Below are positions 3,119 to 59,201 of a DNA stretch of 64,000 bases, piece after piece. The stretch's first letter is position 1; every line of letters begins with the position of its first letter. The DNA comes from Bryobacterales bacterium. GTDB taxonomy: Bacteria; Acidobacteriota; Terriglobia; Bryobacterales; UBA6623. Below the pieces are notes generated by a model. The model saw nothing but the letters and a program-made list of their open reading frames with translations, was not told the DNA's origin and searched no databases. The position numbers and the translations under genes were made by a program. Location of the stretch: NCBI GenBank assembly GCA_965248255.1, contig CBDFIW010000002.1, positions 276,162-340,161 of the forward strand, given 5' to 3'.

Positions 3119-4378
3119 ATGCGACACGTGACGAAGCTCCCCGGCCGCCGCCGGCGTTGGGTTGCTGTCATCCCGACGGCTCTGTCTGCGTTTCTGCTCT
3201 CCGCCGTAAGCGCCTCGGAGTGGCCCGAGTTCCGCGGCCCGACAGGACAGGGTCATGCCACCGAAACCGGCCTGCCACTGCGGTGGAGCGAATCCCTCAA
3301 CGTGGTCTGGAAGGTTCCCGTTCCTGGGCTCGGTTGGTCGTCCCCGGTGATCCGGGGTGAAAAGATCTGGATGACCACGGCGACGGAAGAGGGGCGTTCG
3401 CTGCGGGTGGTGTCGGTAGACAAGTCCTCGGGCCGCCTTCTGCAAAACTTTGAAGTGTTCCACGAGGATACTCCCGCCAAGATCCAGCGGAAGAACAGCC
3501 ACGCGACGCCGACACCGATTCTCGAAGGTGACCGAGTCTACGTACACTTCGGCCCGCAAGGTACAGCCGCACTCTCGGGTGCAACGGGCCGGGTGATCTG
3601 GCGCAACCGAGAGCTCCGCTACGTACCGGGGCACGGCCAAGGCGGCTCGCCCGCTCTCGCCGGAGACCTGCTGGTGATCAACTGCGACGGTGTCGACCGC
3701 CAGTACGTTGTCGCGCTCGACAAGAATACAGGCGCGGTCCGTTGGCGCACAGACCGCCGCGACGCTGGTATGGCGTTTAGCACACCGTTGGTGATTCGGG
3801 AGGGACCGCGAGCGCAGGTGGTCAGCGTGGGTGCGAGCGCAACCGTCAGCTACGAGCTCGCCACGGGCAAGGAACTCTGGTTCATCCGCTATGACGGGTT
3901 TTCAAACGTGCCGCGGCCGGTCTACGGTCATGGGCTCGTCTATGTCACATCCGGCTATTACAACCCTGTCCTGTTCGCAGTTCGGCCCGACGGTCGTGGC
4001 GATGTGACGGACTCTCGCGTCGCCTGGCGCTTGCAGCGGGGCATTCCCCTGACACCTTCACCGCTGCTGGTTGGTGACGAGATCTACGTCGTTAGCGACA
4101 AGGGAATCGCCACTTGCCTTGATGCGAGGACCGGCGAGACCCACTGGCGCGCGCGGCTCCAGGGAAACTACTCACCGTCGCCCGTGCTGGCCGACGGCCG
4201 CATCTATTTTCAGAATGAGGACGGCTTGACCACCGTCATTGAGCCGGGTACGACGTTCAAGAAGCTGGCGGAGAATCAAGTTGACGGCCGCACCCTGGCG
4301 ACGATTGCGGTGTCGGACAGCGCCATCTTCTTGCGCACCGGTTCCCACCTGTATCGGATTGAAGAGCGCCCAGACTAG
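3119..4378 (+). CDS. Secreted PQQ-binding-like beta-propeller repeat protein (start uncertain, 3104 or 3119)
   Basis: Signal peptide then WPEFRGPTGQG, GWSSPVI, HATPTP, FSTP, PSPLL and SPVLADG repeats. Confidence 0.85.
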   Translation: MRHVTKLPGRRRRWVAVIPTALSAFLLSAVSASEWPEFRGPTGQGHATETGLPLRWSESLNVVWKVPVPGLGWSSPVIRGEKIWMTTATEEGRSLRVVSVDKSSGRLLQNFEVFHEDTPAKIQRKNSHATPTPILEGDRVYVHFGPQGTAALSGATGRVIWRNRELRYVPGHGQGGSPALAGDLLVINCDGVDRQYVVALDKNTGAVRWRTDRRDAGMAFSTPLVIREGPRAQVVSVGASATVSYELATGKELWFIRYDGFSNVPRPVYGHGLVYVTSGYYNPVLFAVRPDGRGDVTDSRVAWRLQRGIPLTPSPLLVGDEIYVVSDKGIATCLDARTGETHWRARLQGNYSPSPVLADGRIYFQNEDGLTTVIEPGTTFKKLAENQVDGRTLATIAVSDSAIFLRTGSHLYRIEERPD

Positions 4379-23995: not shown

Positions 23996-26032
23996 TTGAC
24001 ACCGCACTCAATCCCATGCCCTTCCGGCACACACGCACCACGACCCTCCGCCGCCCCGCGGTTCACGAATAACGGTCCGGCCTTTCATCTGTGTTCATCT
24101 GTGGTTCCTTCCTCCCCCCACTCCTCCAACTTCCGCCGCACCTTGCCGGCGTTGGGGTCTTCGATCTGCTCGTAGATCGCCAGCGCGTCTCGGGCGCGAT
24201 CGGTAGAACCTGCTCGAAGTACTCGATCGCCCGCCGCGTCTCCCCCAACTGCAAGTAGGCGCCGCCCAGGTTGCCCAGCGCCCTCCCTTCCCCATCTTTG
24301 TTGCCCAGCTTGCGGGCGGCCTTCAGCGAGCCTTCCAGCCAACGGACGCGTTCGCGCGGATGCAGGCGCAGTTCGAGCACGTAAGGGGCTACTCCGCGAA
24401 AGCCCTGTGCCAACGTGGCCGCGCGATCGTCCGAGGACGCCTGCTCCGCCGCCCAGGCCTGCCCCGTCTCGATGTGCGCCCGCTCGCGGTCGAACAAACG
24501 CAACCCTTCTAGCACACCCTCACCGCCTTTCTCGTAGGTGTCGTCGGCTTTTGAAGCGACCCTCAGGAAATGGACGGCATGCCGTCCGGCCGCGCCGTAA
24601 GCCTCTTCTTCACTCCGGCCCTTTCGGGCCAGGTCGCGCATCAGGTCGTGCAGCCGGAAGCGCTCGTCCTTAGCGTCATAGAGCACGAGGCTGCGGCCCA
24701 CCAACGTATCCAACTCCCCGTCCTTGAACTCCCCCACCGCCTCGGCCGCCGCCCTGTTGAACGGTGCTGGAAACACCGCCAGCGATCGCCAGCGCGCCAC
24801 CAGTTCCGGGGCGTCGCGTTCCAGCGCCTCGACGCTGTCGTCCAGCACAGCCATCGCGTCGCGTCCTTCAAAGTGCAGCTCCGAGCGCTTCCCTTCCACG
24901 CGCTTCAGGTAGTCACCCACCGCCAGCGCGGGCGACGCGGCCAGCCGGTTGCCCGCCACCCGCAGCGCCAGCGGCAGATCGCCGCATAGCTCGGCCAGAC
25001 TGTCGAGCTGGCCGTCTTCGGCGGGCTTGTCGCCGAGGATCGCTCGCAACAGTGCTACCGACTCGGGCCGCAGTAACTCGTCGAGGTCGACTCGCTTGAT
25101 GCCACCAAGCTGCACCGTCTGCCGCGAAGTGACCAGCAGCGCCGAGGGCGGCTTCGGCACGAGCGGCCTCACCTGCTCGCTGTCACGGGCGTTGTCGGCC
25201 AGCACCAGCACCGCCCGCTCGGCCAGCAGCCCATGGTAGAGCCCGGCGATCTGCTCGGGCTGGTCGGGCAACTTCTGCTCGGGCTCGACGGCCAGGATCA
25301 CGTTGGCCATGGCCTGCCCCGGCGCAAGCGGCTCGGCCTCGAGCCCGCGCAGGTTCACCAGCACCTGCCCGCCGGGATACAGTTCGCGCACCTCCCGCGC
25401 CACGTAGTACGCCAGCTCGGTCTTGCCGACGCCGCCCTGTCCGCCGATGGCGGTGATCCCCGCGCCCTGGCGGTTGCGCAGCCGCGCGATGAGTTGATCG
25501 GCCTGGCTCGTGCGGCCGGTGAAGTCCGCCACGGGGTCCGGCAGTTGAGGGACGATACGGGCCGTAGCGGCGGCTACTGCGGGCTGGGTCGCCACCGAAG
25601 GTCCGGGACCGAACTGCGGTGTTGATCCGGGGTGAAAATGTGCTTCCTGAATAAAGGTCATCCCCGTTGAGTCTCGGGCGTCGACGTTTGCGATAAGCCC
25701 CTGCTGCTGCCAGTAATTCTGAATCGTCGCTTCTGCCCTCGCTTGCTCAAGCAGCGCTGCTATCTCTTTGGCGAGGTGTGGGTCCGCAGCCAACAACTGT
25801 TGCAGGGGTGCGGTCAGCGCCGGGGCCGAGGGCTTTCCGTCCGCTTGTTCGGCGCTCTCTTCCAGCGCCTTGCCCCCGGGCCTCCCGCGTAGCTTGTCCC
25901 GGAGCTGTTTGCCAAACTCGACAACCTTCTCCGCCCCTTTATCCGCAGCCTTGTCGGCCACTTTGGAATGGACCCGAAAAGCGAGACCAGTAGAGAAGGG
26001 ACAATGAACCAGGGAACGGTAAGGAGGTTCGA

Positions 26033-26419
26033 TTGTCTCGAAGACGATTCACGAAGGAGTTCAAGCTGGCGGCCGTCCGGCGGCTCGAAGCCGGCGAGTC
26101 CGGCTCGGCTCTCGCGCGCGAGCTGGAGGTGAAGCGCGAAAAGCTCTACGACTGGCTGGCACAAGTCGAGCGCTACGGCGTCGAGGGAGCCTTTCCCGGC
26201 GCGGGGCGGCGTCCCGGCGGCAGCGCCCGTGTCGAGCCCGGCCACGAAGCCCAGGCCCGCCTCGCGGAGCTGGAACGCAAAATCGGCCGCCAGGCCATGG
26301 AGATTGATTTTTTGTCCGCAGCCTTGCGGCGTGTCGAGGATCTGCGCCGGCCGAGCATCGTCAGTGGAACCGGCGCGTCGCTGAGGAAGTACGGGCCGCA
26401 AGGCGGCAAGGCAACATGA
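26033..26419 (+). CDS. IS3 family transposase OrfA
   Basis: RRRFTKEFKLAAV HTH and LERKIGRQAMEIDFL; RBS AAGGAGG. Confidence 0.9.
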   Translation: MSRRRFTKEFKLAAVRRLEAGESGSALARELEVKREKLYDWLAQVERYGVEGAFPGAGRRPGGSARVEPGHEAQARLAELERKIGRQAMEIDFLSAALRRVEDLRRPSIVSGTGASLRKYGPQGGKAT

Positions 26420-27246
26420 GCACGCTGAGCACGCGCGATTTGTGCCGCTTGAGCGGACTGGCGCGAGCCAGCCTCTACCGCCAGGCCAAACCCGACAGCG
26501 AGCAGGTCGGGGAACTGCGGCAGGCCATTGTCCACGCCGCCTTGGACCATCCGGCCTACGGCACCCGGCGGACGACCCAACAGCTGCGCCGTCAAAAGCT
26601 GCTGGTCAATCGCAAGCGCGTGCAACGGGTGATGCGCGAAGAGAAGCTCTTGCGGCGACGTCGCCGCACCGTTCCGCGAACGACCGATTCGAAGCACTCG
26701 CTGCGGCGTTATGAAAACCTGACGCGCGATTTCCAACCCACGGGTCCCAACAAACTGTGGGGCTCCGATCTCAGCTACGTACGATTGGGAAACCACTTCG
26801 TCTATGTGGCGGTGGTGTTGGACGTGTATTCGCGGCGCGTGGTGGGCTGGGCCGTGGGTCCGAACCTGAAAACCGAATTGCCGCTGGCGGCGCTGCAACA
26901 AGCGTTGAGCAGCCGGCGTCCGGCGCCGGGCTGGATTCATCATTCCGATCAAGGTTCGCAGTACGCCGCGGAAGCTTATGTAGCCACCCTGCGGCAAGCG
27001 GGCGCGAGGATATCGATGAGCCGCAAGGGCTGCCCGCAGGACAACGCGTACGTGGAAAGCTTTTTCAAGACTTTGAAAAGCGAGGAAGTCGACTGCAGCG
27101 AGTATGAAAGTTTGGCCCAGGCGCAGGCCGAGATCGGCGCTTATATTGAGCGGGAATACAATCGTACGCGATTGCATTCGGCGCTGGGCTATCGGCCGCC
27201 GCAAGAGTATGAGCGGCTGTGGGAAGAGGCGGCTAACGCCGCCTGA
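26416..27246 (+). CDS. IS3 family transposase OrfB
   Basis: WGSDLSY, HHSDQGSQY, DNAYVESFFKTLKSE and RLHSALGY; ATGA overlap with orfA. Confidence 0.92.
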   Translation: MSTLSTRDLCRLSGLARASLYRQAKPDSEQVGELRQAIVHAALDHPAYGTRRTTQQLRRQKLLVNRKRVQRVMREEKLLRRRRRTVPRTTDSKHSLRRYENLTRDFQPTGPNKLWGSDLSYVRLGNHFVYVAVVLDVYSRRVVGWAVGPNLKTELPLAALQQALSSRRPAPGWIHHSDQGSQYAAEAYVATLRQAGARISMSRKGCPQDNAYVESFFKTLKSEEVDCSEYESLAQAQAEIGAYIEREYNRTRLHSALGYRPPQEYERLWEEAANAA

Positions 27247-27409
27247 GTTTTCTTAAGGCATGAGCAGATCTATCGATCCGATGGCGCAGCACAAGGCGGG
27301 ATGCGGCCTCAGTAGGCGAGCACCCCGCCCTCATCGTTGCGATGAGTCTGCGGCCGGGTATTCCTTGGTGGGTTGCTCTCCAGCAGAGCCCGCCTCCGCT
27401 TCCCCGGAT
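27244..27409 (-). ncRNA. Candidate IS3-embedded structured RNA, copy A
   Basis: Strong nucleotide conservation with 57479-57638, compensatory stem changes, upstream TAGCCA-17-CATGAT promoter (27444-27416). Confidence 0.6.
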
Positions 27410-27738
27410 GAGTTGATCATGCCCCCATTGGGCTGGATTGGCTATCCTTTTTCAGTCAACCGCGACCCGTCCCTACTTTCTTGGCCTCGCCACAGGGGTC
27501 CACTCCACTTTGTCCCCGAGCTTCTCACCGGCTTTTTGCAACAAGGCCAAGCGTAACCCAGCAACGGGGCGGCGTACTGCGCTAATTGCTCTAATGAAGC
27601 AGGGTCGATCATCGCTTCGCCGAAAAGCCGCCTCCAGTCTATCAGCGGCCCGCAACCAACACAGGCACCACCAAACGAAACCGAGCCCCGAACGCCAGTG
27701 AGGGGTAAATCCACCCATTGCAAGCAGAAACGCACAAC

Positions 27739-45859: not shown

Positions 45860-46150
45860 CACGGCGCAAGGCGATGCCTCCGCGCACGGTTCCTAGCCCC
45901 GGCAGGGGCGTTTGAAAGTAGCCCACCGCGCAAGCGGTGGGTCAACCGTGCCCAACGATCCCCAGCCCCGGCAGGGGCGTTTGAGATTTGTTTTCCTGGC
46001 ACCCGGTGGGTGGGGAACAGGAGAAACACGTAGGCTCTTCGAGGCTCGGCCTGTTGCTGTTGCGGATCGCACAGCGCAACCTGCAGCCTCCTTACGGACG
46101 GATTACGGTCCGCGGGCACAACCCTTCGGTCGCGGGGACTCTTACGCCGG
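45860..46150. repeat. REP-like compound palindromes, family B variant
   Basis: AGCCCCGGCAGGGGCGTTTGA twice and CCCACCGCGCAAGCGGTGGG. Confidence 0.6.
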
Positions 46151-57152: not shown

Positions 57153-57478
57153 AACCGCCTTTCCGGGCCGCGCCTGTGGAGGAGCGGGTTGATGAGGCGG
57201 CAAGCTCGCCGCTGAAACTGATAGGCGCTTAGTTACTGCCTCCACATCGACAGGAATTCTTGACGTGCAGGCGATAAGCGCCCAAAAAGGCGTTCAACAC
57301 AACAGGCACCTAGTCCGCGAAGCGGACGGCGGACAATAGCCCACGGTGGAGCCGCAGGCGGAACCGTGGGTCAAAGAACCTAGCGTGGACCCCAAGGCCG
57401 AGACAAGCAGTTAACCCCGCTTTTGCCATTCGCTGAAAAATCGTTGTCTTGCCAGCCGGCTGGGTGCACAATGGCCCT

Positions 57479-57638
57479 AGCTGGTGAAGCGGAGGCCGGC
57501 TCTGCTGGAGAGCAACCGGCCAAGGAATAGCCAGCCGGAGACTCATCGAAACGATGAGACAGGGGGCGGCCACCTCGCCGCTCCCTGCTTCTGTCCCCCC
57601 ATCGGATCGATAGATCTCCCGATGCCTCAAAAAACTCA
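57479..57638 (+). ncRNA. Candidate IS3-embedded structured RNA, copy B
   Basis: TTGTCT-17-CACAAT promoter (57444-57472) followed by a multi-stem sequence homologous to 27244-27409. Confidence 0.6.
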
Positions 57639-58493
57639 TGCCCCCACCTCCACCGCACCCGCCCCGCGGCGCAGCTGCCGCTCGAATTCCGCCGGCGGCC
57701 GATACCCCAACGCCGAGTGCAGCCGTCGCTGATTGTAGGTCCGCTCCAGGAAGTCACCGATCCGTGCCTGCGCGTCGGCCAGGTCGCGATACTCGCTGCG
57801 ATCCACTTCCTCGCCCTTGAGCGTTCGGAAAAAGCTCTCACGGCGCGCGTTGTCGTAGGGGTTCCCCTTCCGACTCATGCTGATCCGAATCTGATGCTGG
57901 GTGAGCAACTGCGTATAGGCCTGGCTAGCATACTGCACGCCGCGGTCGGAATGATGCACCAGCCCTGGCCGCACCCGCCGCTTCGCCAGCGCCATCTGCA
58001 GCGCCGCCAGCGGCAGCGTGTGATCCAGGCCCGTTCCCAGCTGCCAACCGATCACCCGCCGCGAATAAGCGTCCAGCAACACCGCCAGATAGAGGAACTC
58101 CTCGTTGAACCGGATGTAGGTGAGGTCTCCCACCCACAGCTGATTCACCCCGTCCAGAGCCAGCGTCGGCGCCAGGTTCGGGTACACCGCCAGCCCGTGT
58201 TGCGCATCGCTCGTCACCACAAACTTGCGTTTGAGCCGGCACAACAAGTTCTGTTCCCGCATCTGGCGCTGGACCCGCTTGCGGCTCACTCGCCAACCTT
58301 GTCGCCCGAGCTCTTGGCGGATGCGCCGGCTGCCATGGCTGGGCCATTGCAGCGCCAGCTTGCGGATCTGGCGACGCAGTGGGGGCTCTGGCTCGGCGGG
58401 CTGCGACGCACTCGGTCGGCGGTAAAAACCGGCCCGGCTCAGCCGCGCTAGTTCGCACATCCTCTGCACCGTCAGCTTCGTCGCCCCGCTCAC
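57636..58493 (-). CDS. IS3 family transposase OrfB
   Basis: WVGDLTY, HHSDRGVQY, DNARRESFFRTLKGE and RLHSALGY. Confidence 0.92.
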   Translation of the reverse strand: MSGATKLTVQRMCELARLSRAGFYRRPSASQPAEPEPPLRRQIRKLALQWPSHGSRRIRQELGRQGWRVSRKRVQRQMREQNLLCRLKRKFVVTSDAQHGLAVYPNLAPTLALDGVNQLWVGDLTYIRFNEEFLYLAVLLDAYSRRVIGWQLGTGLDHTLPLAALQMALAKRRVRPGLVHHSDRGVQYASQAYTQLLTQHQIRISMSRKGNPYDNARRESFFRTLKGEEVDRSEYRDLADAQARIGDFLERTYNQRRLHSALGYRPPAEFERQLRRGAGAVEVGA

Positions 58494-58834
58494 TTCCTTC
58501 TCGATCTGTTCGTAGACGTTGCGCCGCCAGGCAGAGCCCGCAGCAGGCGCTGTTCCTCGACACGCTGCCAGGCTCGCTTTAAAAAATCGATCTCCATGGC
58601 CTGCTGGCCGATCTTGCGTTCCAACTCGGCCTCGCGGCCGGGCGGGGGACGCTTTTGGCCCTGGCCGGAGAAGGCGCGCTCACCCTGCGTGCTCAACTCC
58701 CGCCGCCAACGGCGCACATCACTGGGATCCATCTCCAGTGCCCGGGCCACTTCGTTGACCGACTCCCCCGCCTCGATGCGCCGCAGCGCCGTCAACTTGA
58801 ACTCCCTGCTGAACTTCCTACGAGACTTCTTCAT
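58490..58834 (-). CDS. IS3 family transposase OrfA
   Basis: RRKFSREFKL HTH and LERKIGQQAMEIDFLK; GTGA overlap with orfB. Confidence 0.9.
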   Translation of the reverse strand: MKKSRRKFSREFKLTALRRIEAGESVNEVARALEMDPSDVRRWRRELSTQGERAFSGQGQKRPPPGREAELERKIGQQAMEIDFLKRAWQRVEEQRLLRALPGGATSTNRSRRK

Positions 58835-59201
58835 GACTCCAGTTTCTCCTTTCGCTGTACGAAAGGGGTTAACTGGCTGTCTCAAATCCTGGGTCCATTC
58901 CAACCAGTAGAAAGGAGCAGCCCCGGTAGGGGCGTAGGAGGGTTGCCGGAGAACCCTTGGCATCGATTTTTCCTGCGCCCCTTGCGGGGCTTGGGTCCAC
59001 TTCTTCCTGGCTACCCGCGGTTTCGCCCTGACGGGCTTCACCGTGGGCTACTTTCCAGCGCCCCTGCCGGGGCTGAGCCCCTTCGGGGCCATTGAAAAAA
59101 AATGGCTTGCGCAACTTCGACAATTCCTTTTCGATGTGGAGGCGCTAGGCGGCTGGCGGAGGGGTCCCGACGGATGGCCAGGGTGCACATGGCTCTAGGC
59201 A

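Follow-up and report, generated by a model that had tools for sequence, protein, structure and literature searches.

Why should two insertion sequences (ISs) with divergent transposases end in nearly the same non-coding DNA? The question arises in a 64,000-nucleotide (nt) stretch of a Bryobacterales genome (Acidobacteriota; assembly GCA_965248255.1, contig CBDFIW010000002.1, positions 276,162 to 340,161, forward strand), here called the window, which carries two IS3-family elements, A and B. The original prediction, made from the letters of the window, held that each has ~260 nt between the stop codon of the transposase gene orfB and the end of the element, and that these tails encode a conserved RNA read inward, antisense to orfB. 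Tails of this size are indeed present: 255 nt in B (orfB stop to the true IS end at 57381) and 261 nt in A (orfB stop ending at 27246, IS end at 27507). Their mean column identity is 82% and that of the tail core ~80%, with long identical blocks, as against 52% identity between the two OrfB proteins. Two of the blocks quoted in the prediction were searched, and each occurs exactly twice in the window, with none expected from shuffled sequence. Comparative analysis shows that the tails of B and A hold a portable gene for what is predicted to be a structured, two-domain RNA of ~160 nt or longer; comparative data are the basis for its helices, its strand and its positional promoter signal alike.

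A Two-Domain Fold with Compensatory Changes

We aligned 86 distinct homologues with MAFFT, without fitting them to a model, and wrote the structure from the compensatory changes visible in that alignment. Here 91.6% of cells are paired (80.9% in shuffles), and double, that is compensatory, changes occur in 31 of the 37 pairs. The covariation score is 0.344 compared to 0.156 for shuffled alignments, none of 500 shuffles reaching it, and controls with slid partners give 0.05–0.10; covariation among homologues, on which the prediction had staked its RNA, is thus strong. Double changes are spread over both domains: in the first they affect 6/6 pairs of P1, 4/6 of P2 and 1/3 of P2b, and in the second 5/5 of P3a, 4/4 of P3b, 4/5 of P3c and 7/8 of P4. 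A second alignment of 98 sequences was fitted to the covariance model and leans towards it, so that its higher values (94.8% of cells paired, double changes in 33 of 37 pairs) are the rise expected after fitting. Under the same model the RNA of element B scores 172.4 bits (E 4e-40, over 57474–57638). The minimum free energy (MFE) fold of B alone gives P1, P2, P3 and P4, with a z-score of −4.12, and unaided RNAalifold recovers domain 1 but misses the gappy long-range part. An unbiased mutual-information scan ranks pairs of the model at the top, the fifth pair joining position 4 of the P2 hexaloop to the U of ACUCA, outside the model.

In domain 1, helix P1 encloses P2 and a large internal loop of two invariant strands, GAAGCGGA and AAGGAAUA. 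The long-range, irregular helix P3 of domain 2 follows P1 directly and consists of three segments, between which lie conserved internal loops (in B, CUC/AGA and AAA/GAU). P3 in turn encloses a GC-rich hairpin, P4, variable in both sequence and length, together with a variable linker. The RNA closes with a nearly invariant, A-rich 3' tail (consensus AUGCCU-NNN-AAAACUCA), and conservation stops sharply at the ACUCA that ends it, just where coding sequence begins on the opposite strand. The covarying pair found by the scan reads as part of a 3-bp pseudoknot between the P2 hexaloop and this tail, preceded by the A-rich strand. Among the 86 sequences, the partners are UGGAGA with an ACUCA-type tail in 71, UGGGGA with an ACCC-type tail in 12 and UGGGAA with AUCCC in one, leaving two exceptions. 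The middle pair is A-U in 69, G-C in 14 and something else in three, with G-C at the two flanking positions in 84 and 82.

The prediction had named six stems and a pseudoknot, and the alignment separates them, upholding three of the stems and putting the long-range P3 and the loop-tail pseudoknot in place of the rest. GCTGGT/GCCAGC, GGCCGG/CCGGCC and CAGGGGGCGGC/GCCGCTCCCTG are upheld by covariation and correspond to P1, P2 and P4. GCTCT/AGAGC lacks support: none of its pairs shows a double change, and of the 86 sequences 14 break it, the same 14 in which a 3-bp UGC/GCA stem is compensated. CTCATCG/CGATGAG survives as a conserved local alternative, but covariation prefers long-range pairing with CATCG...CGAT at 57600–57611 (alignment pair 78–238 has 29 double changes, pair 78–84 has none and 36 unpaired cells). 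The GATC-GATA-GATC stem is weak, with 69.7% of cells paired, and likewise lacks support. A pseudoknot does exist, in the form of the P2 loop with the 3' tail and not as the one proposed. The possibility that P4 serves as terminator of a short small RNA (sRNA) was ruled out since the covarying P3 encloses it. A conserved insert, GGCCGACCAACGGGAGGCG..., lengthens the P4–P3 linker in several Bryobacterales loci (L073, L085, L106, L112, L121 and L139), where it probably forms a further hairpin in a single subgroup.

Strand, Start and Transcripts

Paired positions contain 233 G-U/U-G cells and 97 A-C/C-A cells, a bias favouring the strand antisense to orfB; with the covariation, it bears out the predicted ~160-nt structured non-coding module, read inward from the IS tail. 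Upstream of it, the prediction had pointed to TTGTCT-17-CACAAT as a promoter, and both hexamers lie where they were placed, with a 17-nt spacer. A NANNNT hexamer ending 13–14 nt before GAAGCGG is found in 80% of the 86 homologues, compared to 1%–17% at other offsets. This fixed distance places the likely start at the purine-rich base of P1 (57479–57480 in B), in keeping with the position near 57479 that the prediction gave. In Bacteroidota copies the box at the −10-like place reads TAACTTTG or TAAGTTTG, by eye of the TAnnTTTG type, which we take to be the promoter type of that phylum.

At the other end the conserved ACUCA overlaps the orfB stop in both A and B (in B the stop codon TGA, 57636–57638, is the complement of its UCA) and, by coordinates of the open reading frames (ORFs), also the istB stop in two IS21 loci. 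A protein-coding reading of the module was rejected: even the most widely open frame stays open in no more than 55 of the 86 sequences, none does so throughout, and lengths span all three classes modulo 3, so no conserved reading frame contradicts the predicted RNA. By eye, the ORFs that follow orfB lie in different frames in A and B. As for transcripts, four metatranscriptome runs were available as contigs, which give neither strand nor ends nor expression level. The module is covered by RNA-library contigs from three studies, which for strandless contigs is not proof of transcription. Stretches with no contig cover carry no meaning, and the peak of summed depth on the conserved part arises because more relatives map there.

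Copies, Distribution and Neighboring Genes

The module is abundant in its own genome (8.0 Mb in four contigs), with 62 covariance-model matches of at least five sequence types. Types A to D lie antisense behind IS3 orfB genes, and type E shares the strand of an IS3-like orfB that lies 17 nt before it. One copy is interrupted by another element. Of two D-type copies (G000:C4:743659-743825 and G000:C1:369200-369420), one is cut within P4 by an unrelated insertion and one has replaced sequence upstream of the promoter region, from which we conclude that these elements insert into each other. A regular expression recovers only 52 of the 62 modules, so that counting IS3 copies that lack a module in this genome is uninformative. 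Were all 62 gene copies transcribed, the RNA would be abundant.

Beyond this genome, BLAST found the module in 12 of 400 other genomes of the phylum, and the covariance model in 11 of 150. An exact-pattern scan of a collection of species-representative genomes gave at least 113 loci bearing labels of six phyla. Among the matches listed, most carry Acidobacteriota labels (Bryobacterales, Terriglobia, Pyrinomonadaceae), and others, on long contigs, are labelled Cytophagales, Bacteroidia, Planctomycetaceae, Alphaproteobacteria, Acidimicrobiia and Desulfobacteraceae. One locus, L071, belongs to Bryobacterales strain F-183 (AP025252.1). Five genomes with labels outside Acidobacteriota were searched whole and hold 23, 6, 1, 3 and 6 copies, the 23 belonging to the Cytophagales genome. 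Carriage by phages was rejected, 2.9 million viral contigs giving a single match, at a contig end. The plasmid collection likewise gave one match, an unannotated domain 1 alone on a 3986-bp MobV/RepA plasmid of Hymenobacter aerilatus. After domain 1 that plasmid has two hairpins, in which a GGUUCGCCCUCUGCUG segment is repeated, together with a U-rich terminator.

IS3-type orfB lies antisense directly after the module at 73 of the 113 listed loci; orfB is further off at two, and at two more an rve gene lies upstream in sense. The remaining 36 loci match none of three queries, seven of them being cut by the locus end. Among the rest, Pfam identified IS21 IstB proteins, antisense, at three tested loci (L044, L052, L073), and the same ORFs are visible by eye in five more. 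At five further tested loci it identified IS110 transposases of the DEDD type, antisense at L063, L118, L120 and L146 and sense at L102. On the other loci it found additional rve proteins and a weak Mutator-family fragment, and where the module is partial the neighbors are a DNA methylase or phage-type integrases. Sense-oriented modules also include the type E copies and those of the Cytophagales genome with 23 copies. The predicted location inside an IS stands for IS3 elements A and B, but the RNA is not specific to IS3. The suggestion that it is a transposase cofactor is weakened by its occurrence on a plasmid and next to transposases of IS21, of IS110 and of other rve types.

The neighbors also inform the question of constraint. 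The RNA core, meaning domain 1 and the tail, is ~79% identical where the accompanying OrfB proteins are 20%–40% identical, so the RNA is under strong constraint of its own. Co-divergence of RNA and OrfB is weak (Mantel r 0.34, a value reached in 5 of 999 permutations). The core is kept where domain 2 is replaced, and in the plasmid and Planctomycetes copies domain 1 is joined to a different 3' part, with no transposase gene after it. The same RNA thus accompanies transposases of unrelated chemistry, and does so in either orientation, which speaks against a cofactor specific to one transposase as well as against a conserved antisense-pairing function.

Comparison with Known RNA Classes

No Rfam 15 family covers the module: a search of the whole window returned only Acido-Lenti-1 (45895–45941), and one of 57200–57800 at E up to 10 gave six chance-level matches, none over its gathering threshold. 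The prediction could not assign the RNA to a known family, and for Rfam 15 this holds. Nor is it described in the literature found by full-text search, in which the motif lists of Weinberg 2017 (PMC5737381) are represented only through Rfam 15. A relationship to the RNase P and signal recognition particle RNAs of the same genome was rejected, local alignment scores being 21 and 13, within shuffle ranges.

Structured RNAs in the non-coding ends of ISs include the bridge RNAs or seekRNAs of IS110/IS1111 and the omega RNAs of TnpB and IscB, and the present RNA resembles them in being conserved, structured and so placed; five of its loci even adjoin IS110 transposases. Bridge and omega RNAs, however, are bound to one protein family and contain guide segments matching target or donor DNA, whereas this RNA adjoins unrelated transposases. 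A guide function was rejected by a crude test, in which exact matches between the variable parts and the ends or flanks of A and B reach 6–7 nt at most, equal to the shuffle mean of 6.9. A bridge RNA with a dedicated DEDD partner was likewise set aside, the neighbors in the window being IS3 OrfA and OrfB and IS110 being found at only five Pfam-tested loci. So was an omega RNA: there is no tnpB- or iscB-type neighbor among the ORFs scanned with Pfam, and in A and B the RNA lies inside the IS.

Several ISs encode antisense regulators, among them RNA-OUT of IS10, art200 of IS200 and RNA-C of IS30, and these too are transcribed within the IS and opposite to the transposase gene. They are element-specific and complementary to the mRNA of their own transposase, whereas the present RNA is located at the 3' end, is shared across families and is sometimes in sense. 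We rejected a cis-antisense regulator of the RNA-OUT type on the ground that the RNA lies at the 3' end of orfB and not at its translation start. Pairing with the 5' region of the element's own transposase gene was rejected as well, at −85.1 kcal/mol compared to −84.3 for other elements, with uniform ranks, in a blunt whole-sequence duplexfold comparison. In H-type pseudoknot aptamers of the preQ1-I type, the loop of a hairpin is paired to a short 3' stretch that follows an A-rich run. The pairing of loop and 3' tail predicted here is similar, but a large extra domain stands between hairpin and tail, no metabolic gene lies downstream and no Rfam family matches. As regards riboswitches more generally, the core is aptamer-like, but no regulated ORF lies downstream, and a terminator follows in only a minority of copies.

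The nearest precedent, compared by description only, is Ssr9 of ISPpu9, an IS110-family element of Pseudomonas putida. In the accounts drawn on here it is a ~180-nt sRNA gene with its own promoter, situated downstream of the transposase gene within the IS (PMC8450116), and it is modular, also found detached, dispensable for transposition and thought to sponge the Asr9 RNA of its own element (PMC8450116; PMC12288879). The same accounts report it, in sense orientation, only from P. putida KT2440 and close Pseudomonas strains. The module described here is similarly a gene with a positional promoter signal, downstream of a transposase gene and inside the IS, for a predicted transcript. It differs from Ssr9, as far as those accounts go, in being shared across several phyla by IS3, IS21, IS110 and further elements, and in its conserved pseudoknotted fold. 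We regard it as an IS-borne small RNA, a kind already known, though its activity may well prove to be without precedent.

What the RNA May Do

We favour the reading that this is a self-contained, trans-acting RNA module carried as selected cargo, with a core acting on a partner common to many phyla, and put its probability at about 50%. A promoter of its own would drive the RNA inward from a start near 57479, and the conserved core of the RNA would bind a partner found in many phyla. Candidates for this partner are a protein or RNA that all cells possess, or else a small molecule. It would neither serve a single transposase as cofactor or guide nor pair with a transposase start. Insertion sequences would carry it as cargo kept by selection. 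In the layout common to IS3 and IS21 elements its transcription would converge on the transposase gene, and may dampen expression as a side effect.

A number of observations count against this proposal. The transcript is predicted from comparison, and the RNA-library contigs that cover it are unstranded. One of these contigs, 598 nt long, begins at 57483 and continues into orfB, its record stating only that it comes from an RNA library. A sigma-70 scan of 57300–57800 calls neither promoter nor terminator; it misses the promoter of B because only eight of 12 positions match. In a looser scan, a terminator-like hairpin lies within 90 nt downstream in just 31 of 86 sequences, and the RNA may extend as a long antisense transcript. 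Approximately 96% of the listed loci with a neighboring transposase are convergent, as would also fit a cis-antisense role, though independent acquisitions are few. The pseudoknot depends on one covarying pair, though that pair changed in several lineages. Finally, CsrA and Hfq were rejected as obligate partners, each being found in just two of five carrier genomes, which removes two obvious protein candidates; the Cytophagales genome with 23 copies has neither, although the carriers are metagenome-assembled genomes, in which absence is not proven.

Several of these same points would suit a cis-acting sensor or leader, in which a riboswitch-like 5' domain gates antisense read-through into the transposase gene and so tunes transposition to a cellular signal. 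The predicted promoter of its own, the 3' end abutting or overlapping the orfB or istB stop, the lack of a clear terminator in most copies and the 598-nt contig running from 57483 into orfB are all in its favour. The compact, pseudoknotted core with invariant loops is aptamer-like, and the conserved alternative local hairpin CUCAUCG/CGAUGAG, pairable in 85.3%, could act as a switch. Yet the sense-oriented copies of type E and of the Cytophagales genome keep the core where an antisense effect on the transposase is impossible, the plasmid and Planctomycetes copies have another 3' part with no transposase gene following, and neither a ligand nor an expression platform can be defined, so that we regard this as unlikely, if still a serious contender. 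A new class of self-cleaving ribozyme on mobile elements, cleaving to set the RNA end after ACUCA or at the 5' end, would account for the size, the pseudoknot, the concentration of invariant nucleotides in internal loops, the abrupt end of conservation at ACUCA, the frequent absence of terminators and the multi-copy, mobile-element-linked distribution. At its boundary, however, coding sequence also begins on the opposite strand, and no Rfam 15 ribozyme family matched even at E up to 10; we think it distinctly improbable. The more ambitious form of these two ideas makes the RNA an active component common to ISs that transpose via circular copy-out–paste-in intermediates (IS3, IS21, IS110 and perhaps IS256). 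It would be a switch, sensing a ligand or a protein and licensing transposition, or else a self-cleaving ribozyme of a new class. Such a shared role is conceivable, but we are doubtful of it.

The RNA could also be a purely selfish hitch-hiker, an sRNA that, like Ssr9, spreads by an adjacent transposase with no benefit to the IS. It accompanies at least four types of transposase, in either orientation, and also occurs on a plasmid, and Ssr9, unneeded for transposition of ISPpu9, is described as a selfish element in the accounts cited above (PMC12288879; PMC8450116). But the modules in A and B abut the orfB stop and are not flanked by their own copies of IS ends, the module stayed with IS3 while OrfB diverged to the 20%–40% range with some co-divergence, if weak, and a strongly constrained fold would be left unexplained, a molecular activity being required in any case. 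The odds of a mere passenger therefore seem to us poor. Least probable of all is that the signal is not an RNA of the plus strand, in other words that it marks a single-stranded DNA structure or protein-binding site for transposition, or a structured 3' untranslated region of the orfB mRNA. Helices are mirrored on the other strand, where the MFE fold of the same region is also better than shuffles (z-score −2.91), and comparative methods, according to the part of PMC5737381 drawn on here, cannot separate single-stranded DNA from RNA. Against this stand the excess of G-U over A-C cells, the existence of sense-oriented copies, the service of one module to DDE elements, DEDD elements and a plasmid, and a −10-like box that is fixed in position and, as we read it, adapted to the host; the coverage by RNA-library contigs of three studies adds a weak point. 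We consider such a signal very improbable.

The Host Elements and Their Surroundings

Coordinates are collected in Table 1. Pfam assigns HTH_Tnp_1 to orfA and HTH_21, rve and rve_3 to orfB in both elements, and orfA lies upstream of orfB in element B. The limits of element B were set by its ends, TGGAATGGACCC... and ...GGGGTCCACGCTA, identical in eight full genome copies that have different flanks. In A and B the RNA lies wholly within the IS, ~98 nt from its end. With 44 and eight full copies of ~1.5 kb each, A and B make up ~1% of the 8.0-Mb genome.

All eight copies of B sit among REP-like (repetitive extragenic palindromic) repeats of the CCCACGGT / ACCGTGGG and ACCCAGGG types, found beside B in the window at 57324–57353 and 58918–59075. 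This suggests that B targets such repeats, and some IS3-family members are known to do so. For A, the right flank of the 44 copies, inspected by eye, often reads NNN(N)GTCCCC or GTCCCT; this likeness to A's own inverted repeat hints at a target preference. The direct repeats of A are irregular. The Acido-Lenti-1 motif in the window (RF01687, minus strand) is full and scores 41.4 bits. Beyond the end of element B, at a distance of ~25 nt, there is a weak look-alike (57312–57358, minus strand), which at 19.5 bits falls below threshold.

Table 1. Features of the RNA module and the elements that carry it (window coordinates unless an accession is given)
Feature	Position	Strand	Details
Structured RNA, ~160 nt	57479..57638	+	Minimal extent, from putative start to conserved ACUCA
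Domain 1	57480..57535	+	P1 57480-85/57530-35; P2 57494-99/57516-21
Domain 1 junctions		+	J1/2 GAAGCGGA 57486-93; J2/1 AAGGAAUA 57522-29
P2 details		+	Bulge CUC 57500-02; P2b 57503-05/57512-14 (3 bp); hexaloop UGGAGA 57506-11
Domain 2	57537..57619	+	P3a 57537-41/57615-19; P3b 57545-48/57608-11; P3c 57552-56/57600-04
P4, variable hairpin inside P3	57560-70/57577-87	+	
Conserved 3' tail CGAUGCCUCAAAAAACUCA	57620..57638	+	CUC 57635-37 predicted to pseudoknot with GAG 57508-10 of P2 hexaloop
-35-like hexamer TTGTCT	57444..57449	+	Read in sequence; below promoter scan threshold
-10-like hexamer CACAAT	57467..57472	+	13 nt before GAAGCGG; 17-nt spacer to -35-like hexamer
IS3-family element B	57381..58902	-	Shared ends across 8 full genome copies; Pfam on orfA/orfB
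orfB of element B (rve transposase)	57636..58493	-	Pfam
IS3-family element A	25964..27507	+	44 full genome copies; 39-nt inverted repeats
RNA module copy in element A	27244..27409	-	Covariance model R1, 142.8 bits, E 5e-33
Promoter-like boxes of element A module	27421-27416; 27444-27439	-	-10-like CATGAT; -35-like TAGCCA
Plasmid copy (L150, NZ_CP095055.1)	3733-3890		Downstream of SMR efflux gene

Significance

Structured RNAs in the non-coding ends of ISs have twice proved to be central, reusable machinery, as omega RNAs with TnpB and IscB and as bridge RNAs with IS110. The RNA found here is more conserved than the transposases that accompany it and yet is absent from Rfam 15. Should it turn out to license transposition as a switch, or to be a new self-cleaving ribozyme, it would be the third kind of IS-encoded functional RNA after these two. 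It would also bring a new fold to the orphan structured RNAs and allow better annotation of ISs, since these 250-nt tails are not junk. As it is common to DDE elements, DEDD elements and a plasmid, its target is probably something universal in the cell, and naming the partner of this RNA would reveal a new interaction between mobile DNA and its host.

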